From the IMG/VR virus record IMGVR_UViG_3300021091_000014, positions 32,001 to 96,000 of that record: DNA of 64,000 nt. One strand, given 5' to 3'. The notes beneath the pieces are model-generated. The model was given only the letters and a program-made list of their open reading frames with translations, ran no database searches and was not told the DNA's origin. Positions 30,588 to 37,591 of the stretch are shown piece after piece. Every line of letters starts with the position of its first letter. The first letter of the stretch is position 1. Position numbers and translations under genes: made by a program. The DNA is from a virus.

Positions 30588-31490
30588 ATGGACTTTAGTT
30601 CACTAAAAAAGAACCGTCAAACGGTTTTTGCAAGTCTCAGCAACGAGTTTAGTAAGCTCAATCAAACAACAAGTTCCCAAGACGACGATAGATTCTGGAA
30701 GCCCGAGGTAGATAAGGCAGGTAACGGATATGCTGTTATTCGTTTTCTTCCGGCACCTACCGGGGAAGATGTTCCTTTTGTTAGAGTATGGGATCACGGG
30801 TTTCAAGGCCCGGGAGGCTGGTATATTGAAAAGTCTCTGACCACACTTGGACAAAAAGATCCTGTATCAGAGCACAACACCCAGCTTTGGAATTCAGGCA
30901 TTGAAGCAAACAAGGAATTAGTTCGTAAACAGAAACGAAGACTTTCTTACTATAGTAACATTTATGTAGTAAAGGATACAGCACATCCTGAAAATGAAGG
31001 TAAAGTATTTTTATTTAAGTATGGTAAGAAGATTTTTGAAAAGCTTAAAGATGCAATGGAACCAAAGTACGAAGATGAAAAGCCAGTTAATCCTTTCGAT
31101 CTTTGGGAAGGTGCAAACTTTAAGCTTAAAATTAGGAACGTAGAAGGGTATCGTAACTACGATAAGTCAGAATTCGATAGTCCAAGCCCGCTCCTAGATA
31201 GTGATGAAGATTTAGAAAGAGTATGGAAGCAAGAACACTCCTTAGTTGAGTTTACGGATCCTAAAAACTTTAAATCTTATGATGAGCTTAAGAGTAAATT
31301 AGATCGTGTCCTTGGTTTAATCAACGGGTCTCCTAAGCCACAGACTACAGCTGATAGTGAGCCATGGGATGTGGATGAACCTGTTAAAACAGCGGCTCCA
31401 ATGAAAACCGCTAAAGCAAAAGCACCAGTCTCCACAGCAGACGATGATGATGAGGATATGGACTTCTTTAAAAAGTTAGCGGAAGATTAA
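30588..31490 (+). CDS. gp32: Single-stranded DNA-binding protein (T4 gp32)
   Basis: DDRFWK, GYAVIRFLP, KYGKKIF, GANFKLK, NYDKSEF, acidic tail. Confidence 0.96.
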   Translation: MDFSSLKKNRQTVFASLSNEFSKLNQTTSSQDDDRFWKPEVDKAGNGYAVIRFLPAPTGEDVPFVRVWDHGFQGPGGWYIEKSLTTLGQKDPVSEHNTQLWNSGIEANKELVRKQKRRLSYYSNIYVVKDTAHPENEGKVFLFKYGKKIFEKLKDAMEPKYEDEKPVNPFDLWEGANFKLKIRNVEGYRNYDKSEFDSPSPLLDSDEDLERVWKQEHSLVEFTDPKNFKSYDELKSKLDRVLGLINGSPKPQTTADSEPWDVDEPVKTAAPMKTAKAKAPVSTADDDDEDMDFFKKLAED

Positions 31491-33382
31491 GTATAAGATG
31501 TTGAATGCCGGGTACCAATACCTAGCGTTCCTCTAACTGCAATCGGTGAAGGGATCGGAAGCGGAGCATCCGGTCCCTTTTTACTTGATAGTTGCTTGTT
31601 GTTGCTTATTGCATTATTAATAACACTGCCTTGACCACTTGCCATCTGAGAATCATTTCTTTCTGTGGCTGCAGCTACTTTCATTCCACTTGACGCTTGC
31701 GGTGACTCCAGTGAGGCAGCCTGAGGTGCGGCCATTACTGGTGAAGCTGCTGGTCCTTGACTAGACGTTCCGTTACCACCATCTCCCCCACCACCTTGTC
31801 TAATTAAAGATACAATAGTAGGAGCTCTTCTTCCTACTTGAGTGTACCACTTACTATCTTCTAAACTTTTTGCAGCACCTTCCGTATCACCTTCCTTTAA
31901 ATTACGAGTAAAGTTAGGCCACTTTTTAAACCAGGTCGGTCCCATATTAAAAGTAAGGTCTACTAAAGCTGCTTGCCCCTTATCGTTTAAGTTATCATAG
32001 CCAGGAATCTTTTCAGCTGCTTGTTTATGATGAACAAAGTCCTTCTCAAACATCTCCATAACTTCTTCATTACTAAACTCTCTATTATACTCTGGGGGTA
32101 GAGACTTACCATCCCCAATTAAATGTCCTACACCAACTGTCCATAACCCTAAAGAATCTTTATATGGCTTGTGCCTGATACCTTCATGATGTATAATCAT
32201 TTTTTTAGTATCAGCATCACTACCGGAAGGTAATTGAAGCCCCATCTTTGATTTTGGTTTAAGCCCGGTACCTAAAGCACCGCTTGATTCTTTAAGCCCG
32301 GGGTCCTTACCTCCAGGACTAGATTTAGGCAGTTCAGAGCTTTTCTTTTCTACTTTTTGTGCAGGAGCACTTCCTGCTGGTCCAGGTTTTTCAGCAGCTG
32401 CTGCTTCCGGAGCTCCTTCTGGTTTACCTTCTTGTTTTTTAGCTTGCGCTTCCTCTTCTTCTTTAGTTCTTGCTAACGCTACTCCAGCAGCTACCGTTCC
32501 ACCAGCAATTGCAATACCAGCGGCAATTTTACCAGCTTTACCCATCTTACCAAACGCAGTTTTTGCTTTTGTAATTAAAGATATAGTTGTAGTAATTCCT
32601 TCAGCTACAGATTTTAGTACTCCAGCACCAAGGTAAGTTGCCAGTCCAGCCGCTGCCGCAAGCAACGCAGTTTTAAAAGTATCCAACTCACCACTCGCTT
32701 CTCCTAAACCTTTTGAGAACCCAGTGAAAAAACCTGAAATTTTTTCTTTAATATCTTTTGGTAAGAAAAGGTAAACAAGACCAGAAAATGCCGCAATGAT
32801 AGCTGGATTTTTAAAAAAGTCACCCAATAAATCTCCAAATGATTTTTCACTACCTGTAGCACCCGTCTGAGTTGGTCTTTCTTTTTTTACAGGTACGGCT
32901 TCAGCCTGCTGCTCTTCTAACTTATATTCTTCAACGCTCTTCTTATCAATAGCCTCTTGTAAGGCAGCAGTTACTCTTTCAAAGGACTTCACCACATCTT
33001 TAAGATTGAGAGCAATAGCACTTAAACTTTCTTTAACGTTCTTACCTTCATCTTTCTTACTATCAACAGCATTGCTAGTTGCTTTATTTTTAGCTTCTTT
33101 AACAGGTCTATCAAAAAGCATTTTAGCAACAGTACCGCTGCTAACCAAAGCTTCTAAAGCATCGTACTTTGCTTTTTCAACCTCGTCAGTACCAAGAATT
33201 TTATTAGTAGAAGCTACGGACATTGCTCGAGCATCTCTTTCAGACACAGCAGGCCCAATTATAGCTTCCTTTTCCTTACGAATCGCTGCTTCTTCTCTTG
33301 CAAGCTTGGCTTTTAATTCCTCCGGAGACATTATAAAATCAGGTTCAGGCTTGCTTACTGATGGTTTATTTTTTCTTGCCAT
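31487..33382 (-). CDS. Tape-measure/hub-like protein carrying a T4-lysozyme (GH24) domain
   Basis: Helical A/G-rich N-terminal half; HEGIRHKPYKDSLGLWTVGVGH (E-8x-D-5x-T), LTFNMG, SKWYTQVGRRA. Confidence 0.8.
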   Translation of the reverse strand: MARKNKPSVSKPEPDFIMSPEELKAKLAREEAAIRKEKEAIIGPAVSERDARAMSVASTNKILGTDEVEKAKYDALEALVSSGTVAKMLFDRPVKEAKNKATSNAVDSKKDEGKNVKESLSAIALNLKDVVKSFERVTAALQEAIDKKSVEEYKLEEQQAEAVPVKKERPTQTGATGSEKSFGDLLGDFFKNPAIIAAFSGLVYLFLPKDIKEKISGFFTGFSKGLGEASGELDTFKTALLAAAAGLATYLGAGVLKSVAEGITTTISLITKAKTAFGKMGKAGKIAAGIAIAGGTVAAGVALARTKEEEEAQAKKQEGKPEGAPEAAAAEKPGPAGSAPAQKVEKKSSELPKSSPGGKDPGLKESSGALGTGLKPKSKMGLQLPSGSDADTKKMIIHHEGIRHKPYKDSLGLWTVGVGHLIGDGKSLPPEYNREFSNEEVMEMFEKDFVHHKQAAEKIPGYDNLNDKGQAALVDLTFNMGPTWFKKWPNFTRNLKEGDTEGAAKSLEDSKWYTQVGRRAPTIVSLIRQGGGGDGGNGTSSQGPAASPVMAAPQAASLESPQASSGMKVAAATERNDSQMASGQGSVINNAISNNKQLSSKKGPDAPLPIPSPIAVRGTLGIGTRHSTSYT

Positions 33383-34737
33383 TATACGCCTACTGTTGTG
33401 GAATATGAGTAACTACTATCACTACGGGCTGAAGCATGCTCAGTTTTTGTTATAGTAGTACTATTATCTATATTATTAACTATAATTGGAGCTACCGCAT
33501 CTTTCTTTTCTATAATAATTTCTTCTGATGATTCTGCAATGTTTAAAGTTTTAGGCATAGTAAAGACTGGCAACTCCAGCGTCCCATCAGCCGTTTCAGT
33601 TATCTCACTTTCTCCATCCGAAGTAGCATCTTCTGATAATATTTCCATTGCTGGAGCCGGGACTGCTGTGGATTGGGGAGCAGAAGAAGTAGATGCTGTT
33701 TGAGTTTCTTGCTGAGGCGTTACTGCTTGATTAACAGCCGACTTATTTGATTCTTTAACTAAAGGAGGAACAGCCGACGCAATAGGAGCTTTCTCTATCG
33801 ACTGGGCCTGCACCCCTTCTGTAACTGATTCTTTTTCATCATCATCCTCTTCTTTAACTGCATCTATCTTAGGGGAAGCTCGTTCCTCTTCATCAAAAAA
33901 GCTCACTGCTTCATCATATATTTCATATAGTAAAAGCCCTATTGCTGCAAAAGTTCCTACAAATGGAATAGCAGTGAGTAGTTTTTTTCCAACGTTAGGA
34001 GCAATACGAGACGCAAATGCAAAAAGTTTTGATAGCTTACCTTTACCTTTTAATGCTTGCTTTTCTTTTTTAAGATCATCACGCGCGCTTTTAGCATTGC
34101 GCTTTTTCTCATCTATTACCTTTTCTTCTTTAGCTTTCTTTTTCTTTTCTTTCTCTACTTCTTTTTTATCTTTATCTAACTTTCCTTTTTCATCAACTAA
34201 ATCATCATTAGCAGCATCAGTTATACCAAATAAAATAGAAGTAACTCTAGAAAGCTCTTTCACTGCTTCAAGAGTTGTTCCAATTTGCTTAAAGAGTTTG
34301 TAAGCAAATACTCCAGTAAGCACAGCAGTAATACCTATTAGGGTATTTTTAATTACACCGAGAGTTTCTTGTCCTATAAGCCCGGAAATAAAACTTGCAA
34401 GATATTCTCTTGATTCTTTATTAATAAGAAAAGGAAGTATTAAGCCTAATTTTGCTAAATCAAAAGCTTGTTTCTTAGCTTTCGCAGCAATTTCTGGCAT
34501 ACGACTTTCTGGAATAGCATCAGGGGGAGGAGGAGGCTCCTCTTCACTTAAGTAATTAAGAAGAAGATCACTTAGCTCACTAGCTGATTGTTTAAGCTCA
34601 AGAGATCCTTCTTCTATATTATTTACTTCTGATTTAATATTAAGGAAAAAACCAACGCTTCCAAACATAGCAGATGATGCTTCATTTATAGCATCCTGCT
34701 TTTGTTTATCTCTTGCTTTTTTTCTTACTGATACCAT
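33382..34737 (-). CDS. Tape-measure-like (gp29-like) helical protein
   Basis: Hydrophobic helices, K-rich coiled coil, AIPFVG, C-terminal IIVNNIDNS; downstream of gp26/gp51. Confidence 0.5.
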   Translation of the reverse strand: MVSVRKKARDKQKQDAINEASSAMFGSVGFFLNIKSEVNNIEEGSLELKQSASELSDLLLNYLSEEEPPPPPDAIPESRMPEIAAKAKKQAFDLAKLGLILPFLINKESREYLASFISGLIGQETLGVIKNTLIGITAVLTGVFAYKLFKQIGTTLEAVKELSRVTSILFGITDAANDDLVDEKGKLDKDKKEVEKEKKKKAKEEKVIDEKKRNAKSARDDLKKEKQALKGKGKLSKLFAFASRIAPNVGKKLLTAIPFVGTFAAIGLLLYEIYDEAVSFFDEEERASPKIDAVKEEDDDEKESVTEGVQAQSIEKAPIASAVPPLVKESNKSAVNQAVTPQQETQTASTSSAPQSTAVPAPAMEILSEDATSDGESEITETADGTLELPVFTMPKTLNIAESSEEIIIEKKDAVAPIIVNNIDNSTTITKTEHASARSDSSYSYSTTVGV

Positions 34738-34931
34738 TATCGTTGTTTTCTTGCCTTAATGCGTTCTTGTTCTCTTTCCAAGTAATCACGAAGAAGTTCA
34801 ACGTAGAGATCTCTCTCAAAGGGTATCATGTTTTCAATTTCTGTAACTGACCATTTATGGTGCTGAGCCAAACTAAAAATTAAAGTATAATAATTGCTTA
34901 GGTTATTATGACTCAGCCCAACATAAAAAAA
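34737..34931 (-). CDS. gp51: gp51-like baseplate hub assembly ORF (64 codons, no canonical start; not in track)
   Basis: Hand translation FFYVGLSHNNLSNYYTLIFSLAQHHKWSVTEIENMIPFERDLYVELL... resembles small T4-like gp51; its stop is TAATG-coupled to the next gene. Confidence 0.8.
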   Translation of the reverse strand, partial: FFYVGLSHNNLSNYYTLIFSLAQHHKWSVTEIENMIPFERDLYVELLRDYLEREQERIKARKQR

Positions 34932-35623
34932 TCATTTAACGAGGAAAGCTTAATTGTTCTTTCATTACCAAGACTGTTTGTATATTTAATTTCGTGATAT
35001 AATCTAGGCATTGTCTGAAAGAAATCTTGAATCTTTTTAAAAGATTTAACATCTAAATTTTGTAGAAAATCTTCTAGCTCTTCGCTAGAAGAATCACTTG
35101 CCATATAAACATTATCTCCATCATAAATTTTATCAATACAATTTTTAAGAATATCAAAAAATAAATCTGCTTCACTGTCTGTATTACTAATTTTTTCTGA
35201 CATCCCGGCATGCGGGTAAGCAAGATAAAAGCCAAGCTTATCTGTTACTTCTATTTTGTTAGTATGTGCAGGATCAAATCTTACTTCCACATCATCTAAA
35301 TTTACTTCTACGTCATACTTTAATTCATCTTCTAAATCTTTATAAGTCAACTTAATAACATTGTTAACCGATCTAGCTCTTATTTTTAAAAACAAATACT
35401 CTAAGTCAAAAGTAGCAAGCTTATCAATATCTACATTATTAGTAATAATACAATTATTAATTACTTGCTTAATAGAATTAATAATCTCATCTGAATCATT
35501 ACCCTGCATTGCCATTAATAATATTTTTTCTTCTTTTACTAAAAACGGTCTTACTACTAATTTTTCTTTGCTTGATGGTAATGTCACTTCAAAAGTCGGA
35601 TGACTAATTTTAGGTAAAGCCAT
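34913..35623 (-). CDS. gp26: Baseplate hub assembly protein (T4 gp26-like)
   Basis: MALPKI..P, RPFLVKEEKILL, FDLEYLFL.IRARSV, FFQTMP, C-terminal LNDFF. Confidence 0.9.
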   Translation of the reverse strand: MALPKISHPTFEVTLPSSKEKLVVRPFLVKEEKILLMAMQGNDSDEIINSIKQVINNCIITNNVDIDKLATFDLEYLFLKIRARSVNNVIKLTYKDLEDELKYDVEVNLDDVEVRFDPAHTNKIEVTDKLGFYLAYPHAGMSEKISNTDSEADLFFDILKNCIDKIYDGDNVYMASDSSSEELEDFLQNLDVKSFKKIQDFFQTMPRLYHEIKYTNSLGNERTIKLSSLNDFFMLG

Positions 35624-36556: not shown

Positions 36557-37158
36557 CTAACATTTCCTTTTAGTTTAGCCTGTCTAATCTGTCTTACACT
36601 ATCTCTATGAACTTCTGATTCCGTTGCTTTTTTGAATCTTCTCAAAGGCAGAAAAAGAGCTTTCTCCCACTCCTCAGGAGAAATATGTAAGAATCTAGAC
36701 TTAACATGATTATTTAGATAGTGTTTTAAACAAGGTTTATAATACCTTAGTTTAGAAGTATTAGATAAAACGTTATAAGTTATTTTTAATCTCTGCATGT
36801 CCTCTTCGCCGACAACATAATCATAAAGCATGTCCATTAATTTTGCTCGAAATGCATATGGAAGATAATGCATATTAAGACCAACAAATCCCCCTCTAAT
36901 TATTTTTACAATAAAAATAACAGGAAATGTATCATAATACGGAAGCTCTATTTTAAGTTTCGGGTCATATCTAAAGAGATATAAGTGCCCCAGTCTTACT
37001 CTATTCTCAGCAACAATAGTATTTTTTCTTATAATTTGCTGAGGGTCTACCTTTCTAGGCTCAACATCATAAGCTTTTTCCCTAAGCCAGTTTGTAGCGT
37101 TAACTACTTTACTGCTATCAATATCGTCTTTTATAAAACTGGAAAATAAATTAGCCAT
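36553..37158 (-). CDS. gp2: DNA end protector (T4 gp2-like)
   Basis: YDPKLK..LPYYDTFP, GLNMHYLP...R, PCLKHYL. Confidence 0.9.
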   Translation of the reverse strand: MANLFSSFIKDDIDSSKVVNATNWLREKAYDVEPRKVDPQQIIRKNTIVAENRVRLGHLYLFRYDPKLKIELPYYDTFPVIFIVKIIRGGFVGLNMHYLPYAFRAKLMDMLYDYVVGEEDMQRLKITYNVLSNTSKLRYYKPCLKHYLNNHVKSRFLHISPEEWEKALFLPLRRFKKATESEVHRDSVRQIRQAKLKGNVR

Positions 37159-37591
37159 TAATACCAAGTTCTTTCTCAGTCATTATAATAAATTTCCATT
37201 TTTTAAGTTCACAGAACTCCTTTGCAGCTTTCCATTTTGCAGTATTAACACCGTAAGTTTTAACTTCATTTAAATATCTTCTTGTTGGTTTTGTAAGCAC
37301 TTTAGGAGCTTGTACTTGTTTTAAAGGTTTTACCTCTATTACTAAGGATTCAATAATACCCTGAGGGTTCTTTTTTCTCACAAAAAAATCTGGAAAATAT
37401 CGATGGACTTTACCATCTATAGGAGATCTATAAGGAATGCAGAATTCTTCACTAGACCATTGAATTACATCAGGATGTGAGTCTAAATGAATCATAAGCT
37501 TAAGCTCCCAACCGCTACGATAAATAACGTTACTAGGATCACCTTTGTATTTGGCCGGGTTTTTCGGCTTAAAAAATCCCTTATAACTCAT
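37151..37591 (-). CDS. gp4: Head completion nuclease (T4 gp4-like)
   Basis: KNPAKYKGD, YRSGWE, WSSEE, HRYFPDF, IEVKP, KWKAA. Confidence 0.92.
   Translation of the reverse strand: MSYKGFFKPKNPAKYKGDPSNVIYRSGWELKLMIHLDSHPDVIQWSSEEFCIPYRSPIDGKVHRYFPDFFVRKKNPQGIIESLVIEVKPLKQVQAPKVLTKPTRRYLNEVKTYGVNTAKWKAAKEFCELKKWKFIIMTEKELGING

Follow-up and report, generated by a model that had tools for sequence, protein, structure and literature searches.

In T4-like phages, the genes that encode tail assembly chaperones have reportedly been identified by Vladimirov, Gautam and Davidson (Virology 2022). Here we describe such a gene in a viral DNA window of 64,000 nucleotides (nt), corresponding to positions 32,001 to 96,000 of the IMG/VR virus record IMGVR_UViG_3300021091_000014, in which a homologue of the T4 protein gp26 ends on a run of seven T's and is followed, in the -1 frame, by a module related to the C-terminal part of gp51. 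Judging from the sequence signals and their conservation, we consider it likely that ribosomal -1 frameshifting on this T run makes both the gp26 homologue of 236 amino acids (aa) and a 295-aa gp26-gp51 fusion. Our literature search on gp26/gp51 frameshifting returned no relevant paper, and the work of Vladimirov et al. surfaced through the reference list of the PRFect article. The passage of that article citing it (PMC10885494) states that some T4-like phages have a short gene and a longer fusion gene instead of frameshifting, and the corresponding passage of PMC12846349 speaks of "polyT-containing ... -1 frameshift signals" in the TAC-N genes, which encode the short chaperone form, of T4-like phages. 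The impression of the first-pass annotation that this is undescribed for T4-like phages is not supported in view of these two passages, and from the citing papers the view of gp26/gp51 as the T4-like equivalent of lambda gpG/gpGT seems to be already published. As far as these passages describe them, the chaperones of Vladimirov et al. belong to the same family as ours (PF12322 plus a gp51 C-terminal module) and form the same pair of short and long proteins.

The closest described systems outside the T4-like phages share several traits with the present locus. In phage lambda, gpG and gpGT (Levin 1993; Xu 2004, 2013, 2014, in the summary given by PMC5009743) are encoded between the tube and tape-measure genes, and the order found here, a tube-like gene, the chaperone, the -1 module and the tape-measure-like genes, is the one given as canonical for lambda in the same article. 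Both in lambda and here, only a few codons separate the slippery heptamer from the stop, and the -1 extension lacks an own start codon, whereas the heptamer is U_UUU_UUU in the window and G_GGA_AAG in lambda, and the lambda and window proteins have no detectable sequence similarity. The N-terminal domain of the window gp26, as modelled, has the chaperone fold of HK97 gp13. The short form of the window has 236 aa and an extra domain (residues 88-230) that is missing from siphophage chaperones of 100-140 aa. For contractile tails, the published accounts of P2 E/E+E' and further chaperone frameshifts of myophages (Christie 2002, cited in PMC12859696) and of the Pakpunavirus Adele (PMC12846349) describe, as in the window, a T-rich site of -1 slippage at the TAC-N gene's 3' end, and a downstream open reading frame (ORF) routinely mis-annotated as a separate hypothetical gene. 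The protein family there is a different one, and the motif is an invariant GTTTTT, whereas the window presents a full X_XXY_YYZ heptamer.

Outside phages, the dnaX gene of E. coli undergoes -1 frameshifting on A_AAA_AAG with the help of an upstream Shine-Dalgarno (SD)-like element and a downstream hairpin. The window resembles dnaX by its tandem-slippage heptamer and by a downstream stem at a short spacer, but the shift would extend the protein in the window and truncates it in dnaX. A dnaX-like SD-like element, GGAGGG, is found 8-10 nt upstream of the heptamer in some relatives, namely the cultured phage Cr30 (L001:3088-3111) and loci L077 and L080, where it codes for a conserved Leu-Glu-Gly-Leu; the window has no such upstream element (its sequence there reads TCC TCG TTA AAT).

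The features at the centre of the locus are the following:

35623-34913, minus strand: 236-aa homologue of gp26 (PF12322, phrog_150), the short or TAC-N form of the tail assembly chaperone.
34931-34925, minus strand: putative slippery heptamer T_TTT_TTT in the register X_XXY_YYZ, made of the third base of the Asp231 codon and the codons of Phe232 and Phe233.
34915-34913, minus strand: zero-frame stop TGA of the gp26 homologue.
34925-34737, minus strand: -1 frame extension, a gp51-type C-terminal module of 62 codons plus TAA, assigned by phrog_634.

The 236-aa ORF matches the family PF12322 (T4_baseplate) with an E-value of 1.3e-57 and 195.4 bits, for a curated cut-off of 24.5, and phrog_150 with an E-value of 4.5e-64. 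Its 3' end reads AAT GAT TTT TTT ATG TTG GGC TGA on the minus strand, with the heptamer in register as GA[T TTT TTT] over codons 231-233 and the stop four codons further on. In the -1 frame, a TGA (34934-34932) abuts the T run on its 5' side and 62 open codons follow, up to a TAA (34739-34737) that overlaps the ATG of the downstream 451-aa gene (TAATG). The -1 peptide begins YVGLSHNNLSNYY, ends KARKQR and matches phrog_634 (baseplate hub assembly catalyst, gp51) with an E-value of 8.6e-25, over the latter half of the profile only (positions 60-117 of 121). The predicted fusion thus counts 233 + 62 = 295 aa and reads through ...LNDFFYVGLSH... (LNDFFYVGLSHNN), with LSSLNDFFYVGLSHNNLSNYYTLIFSLAQHHK as its expected tryptic junction peptide. 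All that the first-pass annotation had reported of this junction, the end of gp26, the seven-T run as an in-register heptamer, the TGA immediately 5' of it and a gp51-like -1 peptide with neither an early ATG nor an SD, agrees with the sequence.

By itself, the heptamer is not beyond chance in a window of 36% GC, where the ORFs of 150 aa or more, 54.6 kb in total, contain 19 in-register T_TTT_TTY or A_AAA_AAR heptamers. Chance is exceeded by its conservation and by its placement, since it heads a conserved -1 frame and is followed by the stop after four codons. Three other in-register heptamers lie inside the 451-aa tape-measure-like gene (34723-34717, 34651-34645 and 33988-33982), and a further 42 homopolymers of A or T, 7-8 bases long, occur in the window.

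To describe this conservation, 80 IMG/VR loci with a gp26 42-64% identical were taken, fetched by peptide patterns located outside the C-terminus and the slip site. The pattern NNT TTT TTY stands at the homologous place in all 80 of these metagenomic relatives and in the cultured phages Cr30 and P-HM1, and overall in 83/83 related loci (77 distinct genes, 27-50% GC). A gp51-like peptide lies in the -1 frame at each of the 81 loci with a match, the remaining two stopping a few codons past the slip site. Inside the heptamer, the third-position entropy is 0.00, 0.00 and 0.42 bits, versus an upstream mean of 1.63 bits. Synonymous sites flanking the heptamer are saturated. The Asp codon of the slip site is always GAT and never GAC, which makes up 24% of the Asp codons elsewhere in the same genes; in the same way, the first Phe is always TTT and never TTC, which accounts for 34% of the Phe codons elsewhere, and the Phe-Phe pairs found elsewhere in these genes are mainly coded TTC TTT. 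Where Ser takes the place of Asp, its codon is still AGT or TCT. The naive probability of this codon pattern is about 1e-28, a figure that assumes independence and is overstated, since the relatives share ancestry. Codon usage at the slip site indicates that the constraint acts on nucleotides and not only on amino acids. T4 offers a natural control. Its gp26, which needs no shift, retains ...GLKEFF but codes the end of this motif as GAG TTC TTT, with an interrupted T run, which shows that the protein itself does not depend on the run.

The site is also found outside the immediate relatives of the window. Ten cultured T4-like phages from other clades were examined (Cr30, P-HM1, Vibrio ValKK3, Aeromonas AS-sw, Stenotrophomonas BUCT608, Pelagibacter Mosig, Syn9, Pseudomonas Milchi, Citrobacter Ci1 and Variovorax V45v66) and all ten present T_TTT_TTY with the module in the -1 frame, including the GC-rich Variovorax phage V45v66, whose site reads GAC GAT TTT TTC. 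The conserved TTTTTT(N) run and -1 relation anticipated for gp26/gp51 junctions are thus kept in the metagenomic and in the cultured phages. Among the 80 relatives, 7 have a run of only six T's (TTTTTTC), as do 9 of the 10 cultured phages, and the opening of the -1 frame exactly at the T run, shared by only about half of the relatives, is a detail specific to the window.

Downstream of the heptamer, the RNA can form a stem whose two arms are:

34917-34910, minus strand: 5' arm, GCTGAGTC, 7 nt 3' of the heptamer, holding the zero-frame stop.
34869-34862, minus strand: 3' arm, GGCTCAGC, closing a loop of about 40 nt.

The 75 nt 3' of the heptamer fold with -20.4 kcal/mol (z -2.95). Counted over 50 relatives, 87.8% of the cells of the outer 8-bp stem are paired, whereas sliding the 3' partner by 1-3 columns leaves only 16-35% paired. 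Both sides have changed in 18 cells, none of 500 shuffles attains the covariation score, and the pair 20-65, for instance, is GC in 28 sequences, AU in 9 and GU in 9. Of the two nested stems initially proposed, the outer one has both its arms in the window and covaries, while the inner ATAATAA/TTATTAT stem is present in the window but had to be rejected as a conserved element, its cells being paired at 61.1% versus 61.2% in the shuffles. Other phages carry structures of their own at a similar distance from the heptamer: a 6-bp GC hairpin 5 nt downstream in P-HM1 (z -3.7), a 9-bp hairpin 6 nt downstream in Cr30, and a 9-bp long-range stem of unrelated sequence 7 nt downstream in Milchi (z -3.9).

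The nature of the gp26 homologue was addressed with an AlphaFold model of the 236-aa protein, built from a 52-sequence alignment (predicted local distance difference test, pLDDT, 87; predicted template modelling score, pTM, 0.81) and searched exhaustively against 48,161 representative PDB chains with VIA-align. For model residues 1-95, ranks 1-3 of the 48,161 went to 3FGX (Z 8.1, 86 residues aligned), HK97 gp13 2OB9 (Z 7.2, 85) and YqbN 3KLU (Z 7.1, 86), the next matches dropping to Z 5.1 and 4.1. PMC9603447 lists these same three as the tail assembly chaperones with a solved structure. The N-terminal domain, as modelled, has the tail-assembly-chaperone fold of HK97 gp13. Foldseek gave no significant match in the PDB with the same model, and phmmer found no relative among the PDB sequences. 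Residues 88-230 of the model, which are without counterpart in the small siphophage chaperones, had no convincing structural match, the best being C-terminal domains of DnaJ/Hsp40 proteins (Z 3.2-3.9 over about 48 residues).

The comparison with T4 gives the architecture of the long form. In T4, each of the two forms has a full-length gene of its own, 26 for the short and 51 for the long one, and these are divergently transcribed, whereas the window phage has one gene and a -1 module. Residues 1-201 of T4 gp51 (249 aa) match PF12322 with an E-value of 3.9e-52 and its tail matches phrog_634, so that in T4 the homologous module is found only joined to a gp26-like domain. When 43 of the -1 peptides are combined into a profile, hhalign places it on residues 209-244 of T4 gp51 (E-value of 5.5e-4), and the spacing is collinear: DVF, 22 residues and NYSL in T4 gp51, DFF, 23 residues and KWSV in the predicted fusion. 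BLASTP gave no match between T4 gp51 and the window gp26, and the relation is visible by profiles only. T4 presents two PF12322 genes, but Cr30, P-HM1 and ValKK3 (complete genomes) and AS-sw (230-kb partial) have one each, and in these four phages the long form can therefore be obtained only by joining both frames. The record of the window phage, a 74.5-kb viral contig judged 44% complete, holds one PF12322 match, with a second copy possible outside it. The first-pass annotation proposed gp26 and gp26-gp51 as the T4-like equivalent of lambda G and GT; gene order, the HK97 gp13 fold and the architecture of T4 gp51 all agree with this proposal. The feature is confirmed and its interpretation supported.

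Three other explanations of these data have to be weighed against frameshifting on the ribosome. According to the first, RNA polymerase would add one U on the T7 run and ordinary translation of the slipped transcript would give the same 295-aa fusion. The conserved element is indeed a homopolymer, the rU:dA hybrid is the weakest one, and because the product would be identical, the two mechanisms are not fully distinguishable from the sequence. To slip efficiently, however, bacterial RNA polymerase needs homopolymers of about 8-9 bases or more, and the run has 7 T's in the window and 6 in many relatives, which argues against slippage although it may still occur at a low level. The 42 other runs of 7-8 bases in the window indicate that such runs are tolerated in genes, and the downstream stem and hairpins, at 5-7 nt from the heptamer, would play no part in transcriptional slippage but are a classical ribosomal stimulator. 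The passage of PMC12846349 on T4-like phages also calls the poly-T a "-1 frameshift signal (slippery sequence)". We consider transcriptional slippage unlikely.

The second explanation makes the 62-codon frame a separate small gene, gp51, translated from CTG 34916, from TTG 34871 or by reinitiation after the gp26 stop. In the database records of P-HM1, Cr30, Syn9, Mosig, Milchi and ValKK3, gp51 is indeed annotated as a gene apart, 44-60 aa long and starting at an ATG, which in P-HM1 is preceded by an SD-like GAGGG, and the phages Klebsiella K751 and Vibrio K469 lack the heptamer. In the window, by contrast, the -1 frame has no ATG for 32 codons: the first one is codon 33 after the slip, TTG 34871 is codon 19, and no purine-rich SD precedes either of them. 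Among the relatives, the first ATG, GTG or TTG falls anywhere from codon 1 to codon 43, four loci have no ATG and L079 has no start codon at all, in line with the predicted lack of a conserved gp51 start; at the position of the TTG, many relatives have TTA, CTG or ATA. Conservation, on the other hand, begins at the slip site, with the motif Y-x-G-L-S-H-N-x-L-x-N-Y-Y starting directly after the heptamer, ahead of the gp26 stop and of any start codon, and the codon periodicity of the -1 frame begins there as well. A separate gene would leave unexplained the invariant synonymous T's and the universal -1 relation, and in T4 the module exists only fused to a gp26-like domain. Independent initiation may apply in K751 and K469, but as an account of the window it appears very improbable. 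The third explanation, in which the T run is due to nothing more than the AT-rich genome and a conserved C-terminal Asp-Phe-Phe, without any joining of the -1 frame to gp26, can appeal to the 19 in-register heptamers of the window and to a Phe-Phe conserved even in T4 gp26, but is scarcely credible when the synonymous T's are invariant both in cultured phages rich in GC and in genomes reaching 50% GC, T4 breaks the run, and the -1 frame is conserved as a protein across more than 90 loci.

Several observations also weigh against ribosomal frameshifting itself, or limit its reach. Many cultured relatives (Cr30, ValKK3 and BUCT608) have an ATG 2-3 codons past the slip site, overlapping the gp26 stop, and coupled reinitiation is conceivable in those phages, though not in the window. 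RNAalifold found no consensus structure in a 120-nt alignment of 50 sequences, and it was after this result that the outer stem was counted directly; AS-sw, Syn9, Ci1 and the Variovorax phage have no significant fold 3' of the heptamer. The loci are phylogenetically related and do not provide the independence that the value of 1e-28 supposes. Finally, K751 and K469 carry the module in the -1 frame without the heptamer, K469 with an ATG of its own for the module, which may thus work unfused in some lineages.

Frameshifting on the ribosome, which we still favour, would operate as follows; the event itself, its efficiency and the binding partners of the products are what we infer from the signals described above and from lambda. 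The majority of ribosomes would reach the TGA of gp26 and release the 236-aa short form. A minority would slip one base back with two Phe-tRNAs on U_UUU_UUU (34931-34925), translate the 62 codons of the -1 frame and produce the 295-aa fusion. The 8-bp stem located 7 nt downstream, which holds the zero-frame stop, is probably what makes ribosomes pause and slip more often. On the model of lambda gpG/gpGT, the short and the long form would both coat the tape-measure protein, encoded immediately downstream, and tube subunits would be brought in by the additional C-terminal module of the long form. T4 would achieve the same with separate genes, gene 26 supplying the short form and gene 51 the long one.

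The genes next to the chaperone, on which the lambda-like gene order is based, are the following:

36556-35639, minus strand: tail-tube-like protein (gp54-type tube initiator), 305 aa, directly upstream of the gp26 homologue.
34737-33382, minus strand: tape-measure-like protein, 451 aa, proposed from position and composition (hydrophobic segments, charged helices).
33382-31487, minus strand: tape-measure-like protein with a lysozyme domain (PF00959), 631 aa.

The 305-aa upstream neighbour matches PF23849 (Phage_TTP_2, E-value of 7e-11) and phrog_45 (tail tube, E-value of 1.3e-30). The 631-aa downstream protein presents the Phage_lysozyme domain PF00959 at residues 398-522 (E-value of 6.5e-17); it had no match to a tape-measure family and no similarity to the Cr30 tape measure, and the 451-aa protein matched no family and resembled neither T4 gp29 nor the Cr30 tape measure. 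The window shows two consecutive genes that look tape-measure-like by position, hydrophobic segments and the lysozyme domain (31487-34737, minus strand), overlapping by TAATG, at a place where T4 has the single gene 29. The other upstream neighbours of the gp26 homologue are gp4 and gp2 on the same strand, while gp48 lies on the opposite one. From the gp26/gp51 family and these neighbouring phage genes (gp4, gp2, tube-like, gp48), the source is an uncultured T4-like myophage. The gp4 head-completion homologue (37151-37591, minus strand) matches phrog_218 (E-value of 8e-58) and also PF08722, the N-terminal domain of Tn7 TnsA-like endonucleases (E-value of 1.8e-23).

Two further observations on the junction come from the phages compared. 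In K751 (L086:3260-3500) and K469 (L093:2190-2405), gp26 is about 24-25% identical, the gp51-like module includes ...MPWHL..., and the junctions read GAG ATT TTC ATT TAA and ACG CTT TTT GCG TAA, respectively; an ATG ATG overlaps the stop in K469, and about 500 nt are without annotation in K751. This arrangement may be a third way of expressing the module. In the Aeromonas phage AS-sw (L085:3215-3381), a 167-nt unannotated gap that follows the gp26 homologue holds the whole -1 module behind AGT TTT TTC, with no start codon until deep inside. More generally, GenBank records show either a free-standing gp51 of 44-60 aa beginning at an arbitrary ATG or a stretch left blank, and annotation pipelines should join the two frames.

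The value of the window is confirmatory and lies mainly in annotation and in a clean comparative case. Should the published work extend only to gp26/gp51 as chaperones, to the two genes of T4 and to a remark on poly-T, new details would be the selection on U_UUU_UUY seen in the nucleotides, the broken run of T4 as a natural control, and the covarying long-range stem, 7 nt downstream and holding the zero-frame stop, which a distant Pseudomonas phage has at the same position with an unrelated sequence. In that case, taken together, they would indicate that the T4 superfamily ancestrally relied on recoding and that T4 and its close relatives put gene duplication in its place, a possible though not the likelier reading. 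The present data favour the view that gp51, the long-puzzling hub "catalyst" of T4, is the long tail assembly chaperone and gp26 the short one, and point to a function that, in a single virus lineage, is provided by recoding in some members and by gene duplication in others.

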